Source: an uncultured Candidatus Saccharibacteria bacterium (GTDB lineage: Bacteria > Patescibacteriota > Saccharimonadia > Saccharimonadales > JAGQNK01). Taken from it: a DNA stretch of 64,000 nucleotides. Location of the stretch: assembly GCA_964636355.1 (NCBI GenBank), contig CAZWRG010000002.1, positions 32,746-96,745 of the forward strand, read 5' to 3'. Positions 6,343 to 59,508 of this stretch are shown one piece after another. Under the pieces are notes generated by a model. That model saw only the letters and a program-made list of their open reading frames with translations, had not been told where the DNA came from and did no database searches. How positions within the stretch are numbered: the first letter of the stretch is position 1; each line of letters opens with the position of its first letter. Made by a program: the position numbers and the translations under genes.

Positions 6343-6457
6343 AGATTTGTTCTGATTAGTCGGCCAGCAGGTCGACTTTTTTCATGCCTTTCATGTAGAA
6401 ACCAACAAAGCTACCTGAAATTGACAAATAAATACAAGCTAGATAAGGAGAAAAATA

Positions 6458-7642
6458 ATGGATTTAGATGTAAAACAATTGGCCCTGGCTGTCAAAGCAA
6501 TCGCTGAGGAAAAGAATCTGCCAGCTGATACTGTGCAAGAAGTCGTTGAGCAGGCGCTGGCGGCTGCCTATAAGCGTGATTATGGCGACCGTGAACAGGA
6601 AGTGCGAATCAGCATGAATGTTCATAGCGGTGAGGTTGATGCTTATGTGACCAAAGAAGTCGTTGAGCGGGTTGGTGATGAACACTTTGAAATCAGCTTA
6701 AAAGACGCTCAGGTTATGAAAAAGAACGCCAAAGTTGGTGATGAAATTGAAGTTCACCAAAAAGTAGAAAACTTTGGACGTGTCGCTGCTCAAACTGCCA
6801 AGCAGGTTGTACTTCAAAGACTGCGAGAGGCGGAGCGTGAGATCATCGTTGATGAGTACGAGGACAAAATCGGCACGGTTATCAACGGTATTGTTGGTCG
6901 GGTAGAGGGCCGAATTGTACGAGTTGACCTCGGTAAAGCTCAGGGAATTATGCCGATGAGCGAACAGATTCAAGGTGAAAGATATTATCCTGGGCAGCGC
7001 CTAAAAGTCTACTTAAAAGATGTTGAACGAGGCATGCGAGGCCCGCAGTTGGTGGTGTCCAGGGGCAATACTGAATTCGTGGAGTGGCTATTTAGGGCCG
7101 AAGTTCCGGAGATGGAAACTGGCGCCGTAGAAATTAGTGGTATTTCGCGTGAAGCTGGCGTGCGCAGCAAGATTGCAGTTCGCAGCACAGTTCAAGGCGT
7201 GGATCCGGTTGGTACATTTGTGGGCGGTCACGGCACTCGCGTAAATGCGGTGATGAGTGAAATTGGCGAACAGGAAAAGATTGACATTGTAGTTTGGGAC
7301 GAAGATCCAAAAACTTACATCGTTAACGCCTTAAGTCCAACCAAAGTTGATAAGGTGGAGCTTGATGAGGCTAATAAAAAAGCTAAAGTTACTGTTCCCG
7401 AGGATCAGCTAAGTATTGCCATTGGTAAGGGCGGTCAAAATGTTCGACTGGCTAGCAAGCTGACCGGATATGAGATCGATATCAACTCGTCACAATCTGA
7501 TCAGCCGCTGGATGATAAAGCTCCAGCTGATGTTAAGCCAGCTAAACCAGCTGGTCCACAACCACTTGCCGGTCCAAAGCTTAAGAAAAAAGAACAACTC
7601 GAAAGCAGCCTACTGGAAGCTATCGAAGAACACGGCGAATAG
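6458..7642 (+). CDS. nusA: transcription termination/antitermination factor NusA
   Basis: N-terminal domain plus S1 and KH regions recognisable (GRVAAQTAKQVVLQRLREAERE, QLSIAIGKGGQNVRLASKLTGYEIDI). SD aaggag lies upstream. Confidence 0.9.
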   Translation: MDLDVKQLALAVKAIAEEKNLPADTVQEVVEQALAAAYKRDYGDREQEVRISMNVHSGEVDAYVTKEVVERVGDEHFEISLKDAQVMKKNAKVGDEIEVHQKVENFGRVAAQTAKQVVLQRLREAEREIIVDEYEDKIGTVINGIVGRVEGRIVRVDLGKAQGIMPMSEQIQGERYYPGQRLKVYLKDVERGMRGPQLVVSRGNTEFVEWLFRAEVPEMETGAVEISGISREAGVRSKIAVRSTVQGVDPVGTFVGGHGTRVNAVMSEIGEQEKIDIVVWDEDPKTYIVNALSPTKVDKVELDEANKKAKVTVPEDQLSIAIGKGGQNVRLASKLTGYEIDINSSQSDQPLDDKAPADVKPAKPAGPQPLAGPKLKKKEQLESSLLEAIEEHGE

Positions 7643-7647
7643 ATCAA

Positions 7648-7869
7648 GTGTCGGAACGTGACCCGGAGTTAGAATGGCGCTTGGCATATATGACTACCTA
7701 TCGTCCTGATATGTTGGCGGATGATATCGAATTTGTTGAAGAGGCTATACAAATGGATGTAGATTTCGAGCCATTCCGGCAGGTTGGCAACGTTGATAGG
7801 TTGTTGCTAGCTGCGGCAAATCTGGCGGCGGCTGTAAAAAATATGCGACAGCAAGGCTTGGATCCCTAA
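7648..7869 (+). CDS. hypothetical small acidic protein (GTG start)
   Basis: 73-aa ORF directly after nusA. No clear SD and no recognised motif. Confidence 0.3.
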   Translation: MSERDPELEWRLAYMTTYRPDMLADDIEFVEEAIQMDVDFEPFRQVGNVDRLLLAAANLAAAVKNMRQQGLDP

Positions 7870-37138: not shown

Positions 37139-37383
37139 AGGGCGTTGCAACTGATGACAATTTCTGCTAAAATAACCAAGTTAATAATTTCAATCCGAGC
37201 CGGACGAAAAAAGCTCATAGGCATTAATGAGTTCGGATGTTACGGGTGAGTGCAGTTTGTGCAAATGTCACCGGATCGCATGGAGCGGTACATAAATTCC
37301 GCGAAAGAGCACCGCAAGAGATTTGCGCAAAATATGCTATCTGTATCAGCCGCGTCTGCCGCAGTAAGATTAAAGGAGAATAA

Positions 37384-37797
37384 ATGCCAACAATCAATCA
37401 ATTAGTGCGTAAACCACGCAAGAGCAAAGCCGAGAAGTCAAAATCTCCGCACTTGCACCGAGTGGTTAATACGCTCAAAACTACCAACTACGAAAAACCA
37501 GCGCCTTTTAAACGTGGCGTTTGTGTAAAGGTAACTACCAAAACCCCAAAGAAGCCAAACTCGGCGCTTAGAAAAGTCGCTCGTGTTCGGTTGAACAACG
37601 GTCACGAAGTGTGGGCCTATATTGGCGGTGAAGGTCACAACCTGCAAGAACACGCTGTGGTGATGATTCGTGGCGGTCGCGTAAAGGACCTTCCCGGTGT
37701 GCGTTACCACATTGTTCGTGGCGCACTCGACCTTCAGGGCGTACAAAACCGTAAAAATGGCCGTTCCAAGTACGGCGCCAAGAAGGAGGGTAAGTAA
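37384..37797 (+). CDS. rpsL: 30S ribosomal protein S12
   Basis: [13 protein letters not shown]..., [15 protein letters not shown] and GVRYHIVRG. Confidence 0.97.
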
Positions 37798-37799
37798 TC

Positions 37800-38057
37800 A
37801 TGGGTGATTTCTTATTTGAAGCAAAGCGTTGCCCAGCAACCGGGGAGCCTTGTCAGATATTAGAGGATGAAATTACTGGCTCATCTTTTGAAGTCAATCT
37901 TCGCTTTACTCTCGGTACAGCATGCAGGGAAGGAATGCGTGTAGCAAAAATGACTCAAACAGAACAGATTGAGTGTGGGCTGGAGTATGGTGCGCAGCTA
38001 GAAGCGGAACGCGCATCACGTGCAGCTGCAAAAGAAGCAGGAGTCTACTATGCCTAG
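37800..38057 (+). CDS. 85-aa 4-Cys small protein inserted between rpsL and rpsG
   Basis: ATG lies 2 nt after the rpsL stop, with SD aaggaggg upstream. The stop overlaps the rpsG start by 8 nt. Cys residues at 11, 18, 42 and 59 (CPATGEPC...). Confidence 0.55.
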   Translation: MGDFLFEAKRCPATGEPCQILEDEITGSSFEVNLRFTLGTACREGMRVAKMTQTEQIECGLEYGAQLEAERASRAAAKEAGVYYA

Positions 38058-38526
38058 GAAAGTTACTAAATCACTAGTTCGACCTATTCCCGCTGATCGT
38101 TTGTACAATAGCGTACAGGTTCAGCGCTTGATTAACCGCGTTATGTTAAACGGCAAAAAACAGCTTGCTGAACGATTAGTTTACGGTGGTATGCAAAAAG
38201 CTGCTGAGACTCTCAAGGTGGATAATCCGCTAGACGTGTTTGAGCAGGCGATGGCCAACATCAAGCCATCTGTTGAAACTCGTTCACGCCGTGTTGGTGG
38301 CGCTAACTATCAGATTCCTTTTGAAGTTAAGGGTCAGCGCCAGAATCACTTGACGATGATGTGGTTTGTGGCCGCCGCTCGAGCTCGTAAAGGCATGAGC
38401 ATGGAAGACCGCATTAAGCTAGAGCTGATCGATGCCTACAATGGTACAGGTGCGGCAGTTAAAAAGCGTGAAGACAACCACAAGATGGCCGAAGCTAACC
38501 GAGCATTCGCTCATTTTGCAAGGTAA
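38050..38526 (+). CDS. rpsG: 30S ribosomal protein S7
   Basis: MPRKVTKSLVRPIPADRLYNS...; start trimmed from 38020 to the ATG at 38050, which is preceded by aggag. Confidence 0.95.
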   Translation: MPRKVTKSLVRPIPADRLYNSVQVQRLINRVMLNGKKQLAERLVYGGMQKAAETLKVDNPLDVFEQAMANIKPSVETRSRRVGGANYQIPFEVKGQRQNHLTMMWFVAAARARKGMSMEDRIKLELIDAYNGTGAAVKKREDNHKMAEANRAFAHFAR

Positions 38527-38529
38527 ATT

Positions 38530-38802
38530 ATGTCTCCTGTATCAGGTGTGCCAGCTAGCTGCCAAGATAGATGTCCTCTGGAAGCCCTTCCCGAGAATCT
38601 GATCGTCGATTACCCATTTACAAAAAGATGTAATGGTCCGGTAATGGTAACGGATACGCCTGTTGATAATGAATTTGACATTGAAAATAGCGGCTACGTA
38701 GAAAGGGTTACACAGGATTCTAGAAAAATAGGAGCCAGAGCGTGTACGAACAATGGAGTTGCAATTTATTTAGATAAAATAGCGTCTGGAGAAGGAAAGT
38801 AA
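38530..38802 (+). CDS. 90-aa 4-Cys small protein inserted between rpsG and fusA
   Basis: ATG lies 3 nt after the rpsG stop. The stop overlaps the fusA start (TAATG). Cys residues at 11, 15, 34 and 72 (CQDRC...). Confidence 0.55.
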
Positions 38803-40889
38803 TGGCAGCAAAGAAAACTGAGATGAAGAACATCCGCAACTTGGGCATCATTGCCCATATTGACGCGGGTAAAACAACCACAACCGAAGGTATTTTGTAC
38901 CGAACCGGCATCAAGCATAAAATTGGTGCAACTCACGAAGGTGAATCAACCACTGACTGGATGGATCAGGAGCGTGAGCGCGGTATTACTATCGTAGCGG
39001 CTAGCGTGACCTGTTTTTGGAAGGGTAATCAGATTAACATCATTGATACCCCTGGTCACATTGACTTTACAGTTGAAGTAGAGCGATCACTTCGTGTGCT
39101 TGACGGCGCTTGCGTGGTCTTTGACGGTAAGATGGGTGTTGAATCACAGTCTGAAACCGTCTGGCGTCAGGCCGACAAATATCACGTGCCGCGTATCTGT
39201 TTTGTCAATAAAATTAACCAAACCGGCGGTGATTTCTATAAATCACTCGATTCAATTCATAACCGCCTCAGCAAGCGAGCTTTCCCAGTTATGCTGCCGA
39301 TTGGTTTTGAGCAAAGCATCAATGGCGTAGTTGATTTGGTAGAGATGAAAGCCTTTACCTACACTGATTTCCACGATCATGAGTTGGTTGAGAGCGAAAT
39401 CCCAGCCGACATGATGGATCAGGTGAAAAAATATCGAAGTCTGCTAATTGAAAACGCAGTTGCCGAAGACGAAGCCATGCTTGAAAAATATTTTGAAGTT
39501 GGCGAAGAAGGTTTGTCAGTTGAAGAGATCAAACAAGCCATTAGAAGTGCTACTTTAACTGGACAGTTCTTCCCAGTCACCGGTGGTGATGGTCGGGGTG
39601 TGATTGTAGAAAAAGTTTTGGATATGGTAAATGATTACCTGCCAAGCCCACTCGATAACCCGTCTATTTGGGGCACTCACCCAAAGACTGGTGATGAGAT
39701 TGAGCGCAAAAGCTCTGAAAGCGAGCCTTTCGCAAGCTTAGCATTTAAAATTACCTCTGATCCGTTTGTTGGTAAGTTGGCATATTTCCGAGTTTATTCC
39801 GGAAAAGTAACCTCTGGATCGTACGTATTTAACAGCTCAACCGGCGAGAAAGAACGGGTTGGCCGTATTGTGCGCCTGCACGCTGACAAACGCGAAGAAG
39901 TCAGCGAAGTTGGCGCTGGTGACATTGCTGCCATTGTTGGACTTAAAGCCACTACCACTGGTAACACGCTGTGTGACCCCAATAATCCAATTGTGCTTGA
40001 AAGCATTGAGTTCCCAGAGCCGCCAGTTAGTATTGCGATTGAGCCAAAGACCAAGTCTGACCAAGAAAAGATGAGCTTGGCGCTGCAACGACTAGCCGAA
40101 GAAGACCCAACTTTCCGGGTTAGTGTTGATGATGAAACCGGCCAAACAGTTATTTCAGGTATGGGTGAGCTTCATCTAGAGATTTTGGTTGAACGTATGA
40201 AACGCGAATTCTCAGTAGAGGCTAACATTGGTGCGCCACAGGTTGCCTACCGTGAAACAATCCGTAAAGACGCAGTTGAAGCCGAAGGTAAATTTGTTCG
40301 CCAATCTGGTGGACGCGGTCAGTACGGTCATGTTTGGCTAAGACTTAGCCAAAACGAGGCCGGCAAAGGCTTTGAATTCATAAACTCCATTAAAGGTGGC
40401 GTCGTTCCATCGGAATACATCAAACCAGTTCAGCAAGGTATCGAAGAAGCTATGAGCAACGGTGTTTTGGCTGGCTATCCAGTGGTTGATGTTAAAGTGG
40501 AGCTTTACGACGGTAGCTATCACGATGTTGACTCCAGTGAAATGGCCTTTAAGATTGCCGGAAGTATGGGCTTTCAAGAAGGAGCTAAAAAGGCTAAACC
40601 AGTTCTTCTGGAGCCAGTTATGAAAGTTGTCGTGGTTACCCCAGAAGAATTCATGGGTGACGTCATTGGCGACCTCAACTCCAAGCGTGGTCGGATTGAA
40701 ACCATGGAAGATCTAACCGCTGGCATTAAAGAAATCACCGCTTTTGTGCCACTTGGCGAGATGTTTGGCTACACCACCAGCCTGCGTTCTATGACTCAGG
40801 GTCGAGCCAGTTCAAGCATGGAACTGGATCATTACGCCGACGTACCACCAAACGTCGCCGAAGCTATCATCGCCAAAAACAGTAAGTAG
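38802..40889 (+). CDS. fusA: elongation factor G
   Basis: [27 protein letters not shown] and NKINQ G-domain motifs; 695 aa. Confidence 0.97.
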
Positions 40890-42324: not shown

Positions 42325-42567
42325 ATGCATCCCGGTGTTGTTTTCGAGCTTGAGCGGACAAAACAGCCAATCAAGGCAATTATTAGTCAAGCTCCGGAAG
42401 TTGTGGCAAATCAACACATTATGGTGCTAGTTGGGTTGATCCGGCTTAAACAGCTCAGGGCTGACAATTTTGTAGGCGCCGTAAGAATAAAATACGTCGA
42501 AAATCTTACGCATGATGAAATGAAGTATATCAATGACATGTCGCCACTTAATGACTCCGTTGAATAA
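42325..42567 (+). CDS. hypothetical 80-aa protein between tuf and rpsJ
   Basis: TAGAAT (42313-42318) lies 6 nt before the ATG, with no SD (leaderless geometry). No recognised motif. Confidence 0.4.
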   Translation: MHPGVVFELERTKQPIKAIISQAPEVVANQHIMVLVGLIRLKQLRADNFVGAVRIKYVENLTHDEMKYINDMSPLNDSVE

Positions 42568-43225: not shown

Positions 43226-43552
43226 ATGCTAATGGCTAAAAAACAAACATCTAAGCAAAAGAAAAAATCACCAGCTCGGCTGCGGCTAAGAAGCAGGGTT
43301 CGTAAAGAGCCACAAACTCCTGATGGGATTTATTTCTTAAAGCTGGTCATGTATCTAATTTTAGGCAGTTTATGGGTAAAAATTACTGATGGCAATACAG
43401 TTCAACTGCCAATACCAGTTGGGTTGTTGCTTGGTCTGGTATTTGCGGCTCATGATAAAGTTCAGCTCGATAAAAAAATCGGTTTTGCAATTCTACTGGT
43501 TGCCATGCTGGTCGGTTTTTGGGCCCCTTTTGGAATCTACATTGCTATTTAA
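43226..43552 (+). CDS. small membrane protein with Lys/Arg-rich N-terminus, inserted between rpsJ and rplC
   Basis: Three hydrophobic segments. An extended -10 TGtTATATT (43216-43224) lies 7 nt before the second ATG (43232), which may be the real, leaderless start. Confidence 0.55.
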   Translation: MLMAKKQTSKQKKKSPARLRLRSRVRKEPQTPDGIYFLKLVMYLILGSLWVKITDGNTVQLPIPVGLLLGLVFAAHDKVQLDKKIGFAILLVAMLVGFWAPFGIYIAI

Positions 43553-45471: not shown

Positions 45472-46307
45472 TGGCCATTAAACAATACAAACCAACCACT
45501 CCAGGCCGACGTGGCATGACATCTCAGGATATGAGTGCTATCACTACAAAGAAGCCTCTGAAATCGCTGACTGTCATCAAGAAAAAGCACTCTGGTCGTA
45601 ACAATCAGGGGCGAATCACAACTCGTCATCGTGGCGGCGGCGTTCGTAAGTTTTACCGAATTATGAACTTTGGTCTACCTGCCGACACAACTGCAACCAT
45701 TGAACACATTGAATATGATCCAAACCGCAGCGCCCGAATTGCAAGAATTAAAGACCAGGCTGGCAAGTATCACTACATCCTTGCTTCAAAAGGTATGACT
45801 GTTGGTCAAAAAATCGTCAGCGGTGAAGAAGCACCTATCGAAAACGGCAATCGCCTGCCACTGAAGAACATTCCGGTTGGTAGCGTTATACATTCTATTG
45901 AGCTGCAGCCAGGTAAGGGCGGCCAAATTGTTCGCTCAGCTGGAGCCAGCGCTCAGCTTATGGCCAAAGAAGGTAACTACGCTCAGATCAAATTGCCGAG
46001 TGGTGAAGTTAGATTGGTAAACGTCAACTGTACAGCTAGTTTGGGATCAGTTGGTAATGAGCAGCATCAGAATATTAAAGTTGGTAAAGCCGGTCGTAAT
46101 CGTCGGAAAGGTATTCGTCCTGGTGTTCGTGGTGTAGTTATGAACGCAGCTGATCACCCGCACGGTGGTGGTGATGGTGGTCGTCACCGAATGGCCCGCG
46201 CGCCGGTCACCCCATGGGGTCAAAAGACTCTTGGCTTTAAGACCCGCCGACGCAAGAGCACATCTAATATGATTGTCCGAACCAGACATCAGGCGAAGAG
46301 GAAATAA
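45471..46307 (+). CDS. rplB: 50S ribosomal protein L2
   Basis: GRNNQGRITTRHRGGG and MNAADHPHGGG. Confidence 0.97.
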   Translation: MAIKQYKPTTPGRRGMTSQDMSAITTKKPLKSLTVIKKKHSGRNNQGRITTRHRGGGVRKFYRIMNFGLPADTTATIEHIEYDPNRSARIARIKDQAGKYHYILASKGMTVGQKIVSGEEAPIENGNRLPLKNIPVGSVIHSIELQPGKGGQIVRSAGASAQLMAKEGNYAQIKLPSGEVRLVNVNCTASLGSVGNEQHQNIKVGKAGRNRRKGIRPGVRGVVMNAADHPHGGGDGGRHRMARAPVTPWGQKTLGFKTRRRKSTSNMIVRTRHQAKRK

Positions 46308-46319
46308 GGAGCATATAAG

Positions 46320-46592
46320 ATGAGTAGATCACTGAAGAAAGGTCCATTTATTGATCCTAAGCTGGCTAAAAAAGTAGCCGCTTTAGGAGCTGAGGACCGC
46401 ACAATTATTAAGACCTGGGCCCGCGGGTCTACAATTCCGCCGGAATTTGTGGGTCGCACAATAGCTGTTCATAACGGTAAGGTTCATGTGCCAGTATTTA
46501 TCACAGAAAACATGGTTGGTCACAAACTCGGTGAGTTTAGCCCAACCCGTAAATTCCGCAAGCATGGCGGTAAGTTAGCGAAAGGTAAATAA
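46320..46592 (+). CDS. rpsS: 30S ribosomal protein S19
   Basis: [15 protein letters not shown]...[26 protein letters not shown]. Confidence 0.97.
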
Positions 46593-46699: not shown

Positions 46700-47091
46700 T
46701 GGCAGTTAAAGCAATTGCAAAAGGTGTTCGCATGAGCCCACGCAAAGTTGGTGTGGTTGCTGCATTGGTGCGCGGTAAATCAGTGGCTGACGCATTGACA
46801 ATTTTAGAGCACACTCCGCGACGGGCAGCTGAACCAGTTAAAAAGGTCATTGAGAGTGCTCGGGCTAACGCTGATCACAATCATAACTATAAGGCAGATT
46901 CCTTGGTGATCACCTCAATTAGCGTCACTCCGGGCGCTAGAATCAAGCGATATCGTCCAGCGGCTCATGGCCGAGCATTGCCTTTCATGCGCCGAACATC
47001 GCATATTTTTGTAGCGGTTGATGGCGAACAGCGTGCACCAAAGAAGCCAGCTTCTAAGAAGACCGAAGCCAAGAAAGAGGAGGCCAAGTAA
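46699..47091 (+). CDS. rplV: 50S ribosomal protein L22
   Basis: RMSPRKVGVVAALVRGKSVADALTILEHTP. Confidence 0.95.
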   Translation: MAVKAIAKGVRMSPRKVGVVAALVRGKSVADALTILEHTPRRAAEPVKKVIESARANADHNHNYKADSLVITSISVTPGARIKRYRPAAHGRALPFMRRTSHIFVAVDGEQRAPKKPASKKTEAKKEEAK

Positions 47092-47285
47092 TGGGTTTGT
47101 ATGGAAAAGAATTCTGGTCTGCTGAAATGGATGCAGCTTTGGTAAATGAAAAAGTTAACAGCGCATTTAGTCAGACTTTCAATAAGGATGACAGGGGAGA
47201 GCAGCCCGACAGTCTGGCTCTGCCAGCTGACGGCGCGCTGAGAGGGGATGTTCCCCTCTCAGGAACCGAACGGAGTGAGGTGTAG
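47091..47285 (+). CDS. 64-codon ORF inserted between rplV and rpsC (coding status uncertain; contains an 11-bp hairpin)
   Basis: The ATG overlaps the rplV stop (TAATG), and the stop lies 2 nt before the rpsC ATG. Perfect hairpin ctgagagggga-tgt-tcccctctcag at 47238-47262. Confidence 0.4.
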   Translation: MGLYGKEFWSAEMDAALVNEKVNSAFSQTFNKDDRGEQPDSLALPADGALRGDVPLSGTERSEV

Positions 47286-59087: not shown

Positions 59088-59276
59088 ATGGAAAACTTAC
59101 AAACATCAAATGACGCAGACCCATCAGGATCAGAACCAGAAATATCAGCTGTATCTACATGTCCAGATATAAAAGGTCGAGATGTATTACCTATAGACGA
59201 GCCTGTAGCTAGCGTTTCAGCTAATCCTGAAATGGTTGTGATGGGCGTCCGCAGGCGTTTTCGTGTAGACCTCTAA
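59088..59276 (+). CDS. hypothetical acidic 62-aa protein
   Basis: Strong SD aaggag lies 8 nt upstream. No recognised motif. Confidence 0.4.
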   Translation: MENLQTSNDADPSGSEPEISAVSTCPDIKGRDVLPIDEPVASVSANPEMVVMGVRRRFRVDL

Positions 59277-59292
59277 TCTGCAGAGTTACATC

Positions 59293-59508
59293 ATGGAAAT
59301 ATCTCCAGAAGAACTAAATAGACAAAATGACCAGCTTGTTGACAAGTGGGCTTCAGATATAAAAGAAAAACGGCTTTATGAATATGAGTCAGACCAAATG
59401 ATGCGCACGGCAATAATCGCAATAGCCCGCGCCAGAGAGGCTGGCTACTTAGCAAAAGTTGCCCGCCAGGAAAACCAAGCTATCCAAGCTCAACGCCACG
59501 GCACATAA
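59293..59508 (+). CDS. hypothetical 71-aa helical protein
   Basis: ORF only, with no SD and no recognised motif. Confidence 0.35.
   Translation: MEISPEELNRQNDQLVDKWASDIKEKRLYEYESDQMMRTAIIAIARAREAGYLAKVARQENQAIQAQRHGT

Follow-up and report, generated by a model that had tools for sequence, protein, structure and literature searches.

We analyzed two small open reading frames (ORFs) inside the str operon (rpsL-rpsG-fusA) of an uncultured Candidatus Saccharibacteria bacterium, on a 64,000-nucleotide (nt) stretch of contig CAZWRG010000002.1 that we call the window. ORF1 lies between the genes for ribosomal proteins S12 (rpsL) and S7 (rpsG), and ORF2 lies between rpsG and the gene for elongation factor G (EF-G; fusA). 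A first-pass annotation of this DNA had described both as translationally coupled genes flanking rpsG. On re-reading the sequence, we confirmed all of its coordinates and spacings, the TAATG overlap, and the Shine-Dalgarno sequences, and found both ORFs to be real, translationally coupled genes inside the operon. ORF1 and ORF2 are probably genuine protein-coding passenger mini-genes, occupying two hypervariable junction slots of the Saccharibacterial str operon. The locus contains the following features:

37145..37173 (+): sigma-70-like promoter candidate 5' of rpsL, possibly the str-operon promoter (consensus scan, 9/12 with a TG extension; weak)
37384..37797 (+): rpsL (S12), upstream flank of slot 1 (ORF and translation; PF00164 match on the called gene of near-identical contigs)
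37783..37789 (+): AAGGAGG Shine-Dalgarno for ORF1 in the final rpsL codons, 10 nt before the ORF1 ATG (sequence)
37800..38057 (+): ORF1, slot-1 cassette, 85 amino acids (aa), isoelectric point (pI) 4.7 (sequence, translation)
38039..38043 (+): AGGAG Shine-Dalgarno for rpsG within the C-terminal codons of ORF1, 6 nt 5' of the rpsG ATG
38050..38526 (+): rpsG (S7), the conserved gene separating the two slots (ORF translation, called gene)
38530..38802 (+): ORF2, slot-2 cassette, 90 aa, pI 4.6 (sequence, translation)
38788..38796 (+): GGAGAAGGA Shine-Dalgarno for fusA within the final ORF2 codons (sequence)
38800..38804 (+): TAATG stop/start overlap of ORF2 on fusA (sequence)
38802..40889 (+): fusA (EF-G), downstream flank of slot 2 (translation; Pfam families on the called gene)
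41056: start of tuf

The ORF1 ATG stands 2 nt past the S12 stop codon, and the ORF1 stop falls 8 nt within rpsG. The start of ORF2 comes 3 nt past the stop codon of S7, and at its other end TAA and the fusA ATG overlap in TAATG. With AGGAG placed inside ORF1 and GGAGAAGGA inside ORF2, each insert thus supplies the essential gene after it with a ribosome-binding site. Because the cassettes carry both the downstream Shine-Dalgarno and the stop/start junction, translation of S7 and EF-G remains coupled whatever occupies the slot. Between rpsL and fusA we found no Rfam element, no internal promoter, and no plus-strand terminator, and the inserts folded no better as RNA than shuffled controls (z = +0.44 and +0.54).

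Each ORF encodes exactly four cysteines (Cys), the first at residue 11 in a close pair, in agreement with the first-pass annotation. Those of ORF1 lie at residues 11, 18, 42, and 59 (C-x6-C-x23-C-x16-C), with an N-terminal knuckle RCPATGEPC, and those of ORF2 at residues 11, 15, 34, and 72 (C-x3-C-x18-C-x37-C), in SCQDRCP, RCNGP, and RACTNNG. Cys makes up 0.35% of residues in the long ORFs of the window and 0.46% in related loci; given this background, a 90-aa sequence would have 4 or more Cys with a probability of about 8e-4, a figure that applies to ORF1 and ORF2 each. A shared G-x-AC element had been taken as a hint of distant paralogy between the two. The element exists, but it carries no weight for paralogy: BLASTP does not align ORF1 with ORF2 even locally, and we rejected a paralogous relationship.

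To place the two genes in context, we used the window S7 as an anchor and collected 163 related loci, fetched from 80 species-representative genomes and 80 metagenome contigs. Their S7 proteins are 81-92% identical to that of the window, and every named record is Saccharibacteria or Patescibacteria. The rpsL-rpsG gap is at most 10 nt in 100/157 loci and at least 100 nt (median 225) in the other 57 (36%), with nothing intermediate. The rpsG-fusA gap is at least 100 nt in 121/148 loci (82%) and reaches 1501 nt; this second slot holds one ORF in 97 loci, two in 14, three in 7, and four in 1. As a control, the rpoC-rpsL spacer has a median of 110 nt and is enlarged in 7/128 loci.

The slot occupants are plus-strand ORFs of 60-165 aa. 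Among inserts the size of a single cassette, 22/22 in slot 1 and 39/46 in slot 2 have a stop-free plus-strand frame over at least 90% of their length; for the minus strand, the counts are 8 and 3, respectively. Cassettes mostly start -1 to +7 nt relative to the upstream stop and often end by overlapping the next gene by 1, 8, or 11 nt. In other genomes, slot-1 cassettes resemble ORF1 in their G-rich final codons and terminate out of frame within rpsG. BLASTP sorts the 189 unique slot ORFs into 145 clusters, 118 of which are singletons. The rpsL|rpsG and rpsG|fusA junctions are therefore hypervariable slots for unrelated mini-proteins.

Cassettes are bound to their slot and diverge quickly. The largest family (fam9) has nine members in our loci and two more from the large protein database, and 11/11 sit in the rpsG|fusA slot; among 5.8 billion proteins, it is represented by nine clusters only, of 1-2 sequences each. 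No significant homology links slot 1 with slot 2, or either with cassettes at other junctions. Among 46 genome pairs with rpsG 84-90% identical at the nucleotide level, 5 still have a recognizable slot-2 cassette in common, and genomes with an S7 protein identity of 85-90% have lost homology between their cassettes.

We then compared the window with contigs of the same species, which are about 98% identical to it. Three haplotypes were found. ORF1 and ORF2 occur together in the window and in L082. ORF1 is combined with an unrelated 106-aa, four-Cys ORF in L081 and L170; this ORF replaces ORF2 and likewise ends TAATG on fusA. Finally, ORF2 is present without ORF1 in L083 (the same contig as L169). 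In L083, the 252-nt segment corresponding to 37798-38049 is precisely missing, such that the S12 stop is followed by 2 nt and the S7 ATG; in the alignment, the AAGGAGG at the end of rpsL serves rpsG directly. Where present in these contigs, ORF1 differs from the window at 1/250 sites and ORF2 at 0/272 sites. The rpsL gene differs at 0/414 sites in L081 and L082 and at 4/206 sites in L083, and rpsG differs at 12-14/477 sites in each of the three. The region from 38050 to 38526 has the appearance of a sub-kilobase recombination mosaic with rpsG at its center when the window is compared with these contigs.

One pair of genomes also separates a cassette from its surroundings. In L052 and L066, the slot-2 cassettes are 93-96% identical (dS, synonymous divergence, of 0.095), the flanks are 81-88% identical with dS above 1, and the slot-1 cassettes are unrelated. 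Cassettes are thus accessory, strain variable, and exchanged. The exchange would proceed through homologous recombination via the conserved flanks.

Homology searches placed neither ORF in a known family. Pfam and NCBIfam contain no family for ORF1 and gave only a sub-threshold SNAP-25 match for ORF2, and sequence searches of the PDB found nothing significant for either. A k-mer word-indexed search of the 5.8 billion proteins returned near-identical copies alone for both, and jackhmmer searches from each against the 189 slot ORFs found zero relatives. An exhaustive HMMER search of 1.84 billion representatives, with ORF2 as the query, revealed its sole true relative, P0012, a protein of 88 aa that aligns over residues 4-82 at 38-39% identity (E = 2e-11). 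P0012 keeps all four Cys as well as the CQxRCPLE, C-[ND]-x-P, and ACTNxG motifs. It is found on seven contigs and is at the rpsG|fusA position in all five listed. The genome that carries it (L164) has S12, S7, EF-G, and EF-Tu 85%, 87%, 84.5%, and 91% identical to those of the window and has no gene in slot 1. ORF2 and P0012 differ by a pN (nonsynonymous differences per site) of 0.46, compared with 0.07-0.11 for neighboring genes. ORF2 thereby passes the check for an orthologue with conserved Cys positions that had been proposed at the outset: four Cys are kept, in the same slot of another genome.

The same search gave a marginal ORF2 match (residues 16-55, E = 3e-4, overlapping the C-N-G-P motif) to eight repeats (…NPSAVQCTNDGPVRVVPGTPVNLEYDISNAG…) of P0013, a 7602-aa protein; the repeat may be Ig- or filamin-like. 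We judged the weak matches to P0013 and P0014 to be due to chance, amplified by the repeats.

Beyond these individual proteins, profile searches of Pfam, PDB, PADLOC, and PHROGs gave 0 matches for 66 Cys-rich cassettes, and a Pfam search gave 0 for 62 Cys-poor ones, for a total of 128 cassettes without a Pfam domain. No relatives were found among IMG/VR viral contigs or GenBank phages. We therefore rejected a phage or viral origin, as none matched in IMG/VR, GenBank phages, or PHROGs.

Despite their lack of sequence similarity, many cassettes belong with ORF1 and ORF2 in a common class. Cys counts are bimodal in both slots. In slot 2, there are 48 cassettes with no Cys, 27 with one, 9 with two, 1 with three, 33 with four, 22 with five, and 2 with six or more; in slot 1, the numbers are 22, 7, 5, 1, 11, and 1 for zero to five Cys. 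By our own calculation, random sequence of the same composition would contain about 3% Cys, and the counts would peak once, near 3 per 100 aa. Base composition thus cannot explain the observed pattern, and we rejected a random-composition origin of the Cys on this basis. In the Cys-rich class, the first Cys is at a median of residue 11, His is rare, and Pro follows Cys in 22% of cases versus a 4.9% background. The first pair is C-x3-6-C in 12/12 slot-1 proteins of this class; in slot 2, it is CxxC in 27/57 and CxxCP in 17/57. All cassette classes are acidic (median pI 4.4-4.9), and the Cys-rich ones have no transmembrane-like segments or signal peptide. ORF1 and ORF2 share the defining features of the class: each is a plus-strand ORF within the 60- to 135-aa range that fills an intra-operon junction and is coupled on both sides, with 4-5 Cys, a close N-terminal pair near residue 11, Pro beside Cys, and an acidic pI. 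The slot-1 architecture fits ORF1 (spacers 6/23/16), and the slot-2 class fits ORF2 (3/18/37, CQDRCP, CNGP).

Short knuckles recur between otherwise dissimilar cassettes. RCPATGEPCQ of ORF1 resembles the fam9 consensus tCpltGepCp, with 10/2000 Cys-fixed shuffles scoring equally. There is no full-length profile match between ORF1 and fam9, and we rejected full-length homology, leaving the 10-residue knuckle only. A slot-1 cassette of L066 (2772-3011) and a slot-2 cassette of L103 (2282-2563) likewise match over 13 residues only, with FPEGCPLN discernible by eye. Judged from such short matches, these shared knuckles could be metal-binding convergence or the last trace of common descent.

Selection acts on the cassettes, and their Cys in particular are retained. 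In 17 homologous pairs at no more than 60% identity, 88% of Cys were kept versus 32% overall identity. Where dS was unsaturated, the ratio of nonsynonymous to synonymous divergence (dN/dS) was 0.09 (L029/L057), 0.12 and 0.21 (L008/L086), 0.23 (L085/L144), and 0.53 (L052/L066), and in L008/L086 the cassette dN was 24-45 times that of S7. Cassettes are thus under purifying but weak selection. GC content at third codon positions (GC3) lies 15 points under that of rpsG across 183 cassettes (p ~5e-30); it is 0.34 in ORF1 and 0.31 in ORF2, compared with 0.42-0.51 in their neighbors. The codon adaptation index (CAI) is 0.60 for ORF1 and 0.57 for ORF2, compared with 0.72-0.81 for translation genes and 0.62-0.70 for ordinary genes. 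With such low GC3 and CAI, the cassettes look like young or weakly optimized genes rather than long-standing core components.

The combination of operon position, turnover, and Cys retention suggests how the passenger genes might work. The inserts have no promoter, terminator, or RNA structure of their own, and each begins a few nucleotides past the preceding stop codon, with its Shine-Dalgarno lying inside the gene before it. This layout makes co-expression with S12, S7, and EF-G plausible, and the proteins would be abundant through riding on the str transcript. Slot contents turn over by two routes: whole cassettes are gained, lost, or swapped independently of their flanks, probably by homologous recombination in the strongly conserved genes on either side, and families that keep to their own slot diverge very fast in situ. 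The predicted products are small, acidic, and soluble, and the one feature conserved in the Cys4 class is the set of four Cys, with a close N-terminal pair from near residue 11, often beside Pro, and two distal Cys. Together, the four Cys would make up a structural metal site, most probably Zn(Cys)4, with an Fe-S site or disulfides as alternatives. Such a site would hold the mini-domain together and leave its surface free to vary. The proteins would then act as accessory, strain-specific binding modules, not as constitutive ribosomal proteins.

Several points weigh against this interpretation. AlphaFold2 single-sequence models of ORF1 and ORF2 have a pLDDT (the predictor's own confidence measure) of 43 and 38, and neither a fold nor a Cys geometry is readable from them; we therefore drew no inference about the fold. 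The pN/pS ratio between ORF2 and P0012 is uninformative because pS is saturated. ORF1 has no orthologues beyond near-identical strains in the word-indexed search and the slot ORF set, so its constraint would follow from class membership only. Cys-rich slot-1 cassettes occur with Cys-rich slot-2 cassettes in 10/13 loci versus 45/122 otherwise (odds ratio 5.7, p = 0.007, uncorrected for phylogeny); together with the location in a translation operon, this co-occurrence could indicate a closer tie to the ribosome than the word "passenger" implies.

Such a tie was the proposal of the first-pass annotation, which had predicted stoichiometric, lineage-specific components of the ribosome or its elongation factors. 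The products would be zinc-binding subunits associated with the ribosome or EF-G and held at a fixed ratio to S12, S7, and EF-G by translational coupling. The tight coupling inside the str operon speaks for this, as do Cys4 sites, which are typical of small ribosomal proteins: zinc-binding C+ forms have a Cys4 or Cys3His site. Cys-less L36 and S14 in this organism, to which the annotation had pointed, would count in favor too; the description is true of L36, and S14 is the long form with one Cys. Also in favor, the class occurs at rplB|rpsS (L173) and fusA|tuf (L164) as well, Cys-rich genes of the two slots co-occur, and cassette families never leave their slot. Like ORF1 and ORF2, the zinc C+ forms of bL36, uS14, bL31, and bL33 are small, encoded in translation operons, and translationally coupled. 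However, those proteins are basic, universal, codon optimized, and matched by Pfam, whereas ORF1 and ORF2 are acidic (pI 4.6-4.7, where proteins that bind ribosomal RNA are basic), dispensable between strains, poorly adapted in codon usage (CAI below the level of ordinary genes), and unmatched by any PDB chain or by the ribosomal-protein families of Pfam and NCBIfam. Nor are they constitutively present: within one species, ORF1 is missing (L083) and ORF2 replaced (L081, L170). Among related genomes, 64% have nothing in slot 1 and 18% have a short slot 2, homology is lost rapidly, and many cassettes are Cys-free (22 in slot 1 and 48 in slot 2). A stoichiometric role is thus a poor fit and, in our view, unlikely, although a sub-stoichiometric or strain-specific association with the ribosome or elongation factors may exist.

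The absence and replacement of cassettes between strains would suit a role in conflict, in which immunity-like or target-protecting binders act against toxins or antibiotics directed at the translation machinery, or against other weapons of competitors or phages, and the translation operon supplies strong constitutive expression. Extreme diversity, strain-level presence or absence, and cassette exchange are hallmarks of an arms race, and the proteins are small, acidic, and at times arranged in tandem arrays of 2-4. There is also a precedent in FusB, whose Cys4 zinc domain binds EF-G and protects against an antibiotic (PMC3352095). Against this stand the zero matches in PADLOC, PHROGs, Pfam, viral contigs, and phage genomes, the absence of an adjacent toxin gene, a Cys spacing unlike that of FusB, and the lack of a nonsynonymous excess in the pairs that could be measured (dN/dS of at most 0.53). 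Attractive as the analogy is, we consider a conflict role improbable as a general explanation, and we are slightly more doubtful of a more specific version, in which polymorphic, metal-stabilized mini-domains would dock on S12, S7, EF-G, EF-Tu, or neighboring ribosomal proteins as a strain-specific tuning or target-protection "ribosome shield." If true, such a shield would guard against antibiotics or toxins that target translation and come from actinobacterial hosts, competitors, or phages, and it would be encoded in situ beside the genes for its targets and swapped between strains by recombination through them.

The remaining rivals dispense with a protein function. The inserts could be translated spacers, with frames kept open only for the passage of ribosomes to rpsG and fusA and with functionless peptides as products. 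Fast divergence, AT richness, poor codon usage, and 128 cassettes without a recognizable domain would be expected of such spacers, the downstream Shine-Dalgarno and stop/start overlap are conserved in every cassette, and the empty state is viable. But Cys counts are bimodal (0-1 and 4-5) instead of clustering around 3 per 100 aa, Cys are kept at 88% in homologues, dN/dS falls to 0.09-0.2, and the products are uniformly acidic. Furthermore, coupling works perfectly well at an empty junction, so no spacer is needed, and we rejected this explanation as very unlikely. A structured regulatory RNA, such as an S7-binding autoregulatory leader, has a precedent in E. coli, where the rpsL-rpsG spacer is the S7 operator. 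Here, strand-specific open frames fill the inserts, and their sequences are unrelated between genomes. With folding no better than shuffled and no Rfam match, we rejected the structured-RNA reading, which is already effectively refuted.

Known systems share some of the features of the slot cassettes. FusB and FusC are target-protection proteins that bind EF-G; FusB is about 213 aa long, with two domains (PMC3352095, PMC4725979), and its Cys4 treble-clef zinc domain has the spacing CXXC-X23-CX5C (PMC3352095). An N-terminal knuckle with distal ligands in a small domain is a point of likeness, and FusB/FusC may offer an analogue for a gene adjacent to fusA. ORF1 (85 aa, 6/23/16) and ORF2 (90 aa, 3/18/37) differ from FusB in both length and spacing, and no FusB or FusC chains turned up in the PDB, whether the query was a single sequence or the 66-member profile. 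In Haloferax volcanii, many diverse stand-alone Cys4 proteins, mostly without a known function, make up the C(P)XCG zinc-finger micro-proteins; AlphaFold2 fails to predict correctly the metal-ready placement of their four cysteines (PMC11241148). They are archaeal, are shorter than 70 aa, have two C(P)XCG knuckles, and are scattered over the genome (PMC11241148). In contrast, the Cys4 cassettes are 70-135 aa long, combine one close pair (CxxC(P) or C-x3-6-C) with two distant Cys, and are confined to operon junctions; neither ORF1 (85 aa) nor ORF2 (90 aa) contains C(P)XCG, which places both outside the micro-protein class.

Integron cassettes, at times arrayed, are likewise small ORFs with no known function and no promoter of their own; they are driven by an upstream promoter, vary between strains, and are exchanged apart from their flanks. 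The slot cassettes match them in being promoterless, strain-variable ORFs with no internal promoter or terminator. They differ in having no integrase nearby, in lying in an essential, coupled operon, and in forming families bound to one slot. Nor would an attC site fit, given that the stops run into the following start codon and most cassettes lie -11 to +7 nt from their neighbors. Classical hotspots are located between operons, whereas the slot cassettes are inside one. In the related loci, the inter-operon rpoC-rpsL spacer can have contents of its own: in L085, L136, and L154 (3 of the 7 enlarged inserts) it measures 650-694 nt and encodes GIY-YIG-like proteins, with Pfam GIY-YIG matches in L085 and L154 (E ~1e-18 to 1e-19). 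Recognizable selfish genes are thus found in the inter-operon spacer and unknown mini-genes at the intra-operon junctions.

Small Cys4 micro-proteins, recombination hotspots, and cassette arrays are already known in generic form. What is new is hotspots inside a universally conserved, translationally coupled operon, filled exclusively by unknown mini-proteins, among which a Cys4 class recurs. We found no prior description of such slots or proteins in the literature searched, for which the searchable library was limited. The rpsL-rpsG-fusA string is supposedly invariant and is used as such in phylogenomics and in quality control of metagenome-assembled genomes; here, it harbors recombining hotspots of orphan mini-genes, in hosts that make up a whole phylum of ultra-small, genome-reduced episymbionts. 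The slots expose a pool of uncharacterized small proteins that are probably highly expressed, about 40% of them with the Cys4 signature. They offer a natural system for gene birth, fixation, and exchange under the constraint of translational coupling, as well as strain-level markers within otherwise conserved loci. Saccharibacteria may even customize or protect their translation apparatus strain by strain. For annotators, the slots are a warning that expectations based on synteny can mask real genes.

Similar small ORFs were observed at other junctions of the window and of related loci. In L173, a contig of the same-species strain lacking ORF1 (sample SRR33878428), an 89-aa, four-Cys ORF with a pI of 4.4 lies between rplB and rpsS (853-1122); the matching site of the window (46307-46320) is a bare 12-nt spacer. 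The Cys4 class and its strain variability therefore reach the S10 operon. In L164, the genome that encodes P0012, the fusA-tuf spacer (6378-6807) measures 433 nt, whereas most loci have 117-166 nt. This third str-operon slot holds two ORFs, one of 98 aa with six Cys (…ECDHSCERTC…SCAGP…) and one of 64 aa. The fusA-tuf spacers of L010 and L019 are likewise enlarged and contain ORFs.

Within the window, a 64-aa, acidic, Cys-free ORF lies between rplV and rpsC (47091-47285, plus strand). The rplV stop and the start of this ORF overlap, and 3 nt separate its end from rpsC; it has no Pfam match and is kept in 3/3 same-species contigs found. Further plus-strand ORFs without a Pfam match are located between rpsJ and rplC (43226-43552; 108 aa, with a basic N terminus and a hydrophobic stretch) and between tuf and rpsJ (42325-42567; 80 aa). 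Another small ORF without a Pfam match (7648-7869, plus strand) lies directly 3' of a 394-aa ORF at 6458-7642, which we take to be a NusA look-alike. Two more, also without a Pfam match, follow rpsI on the plus strand (59088-59276 and 59293-59508).

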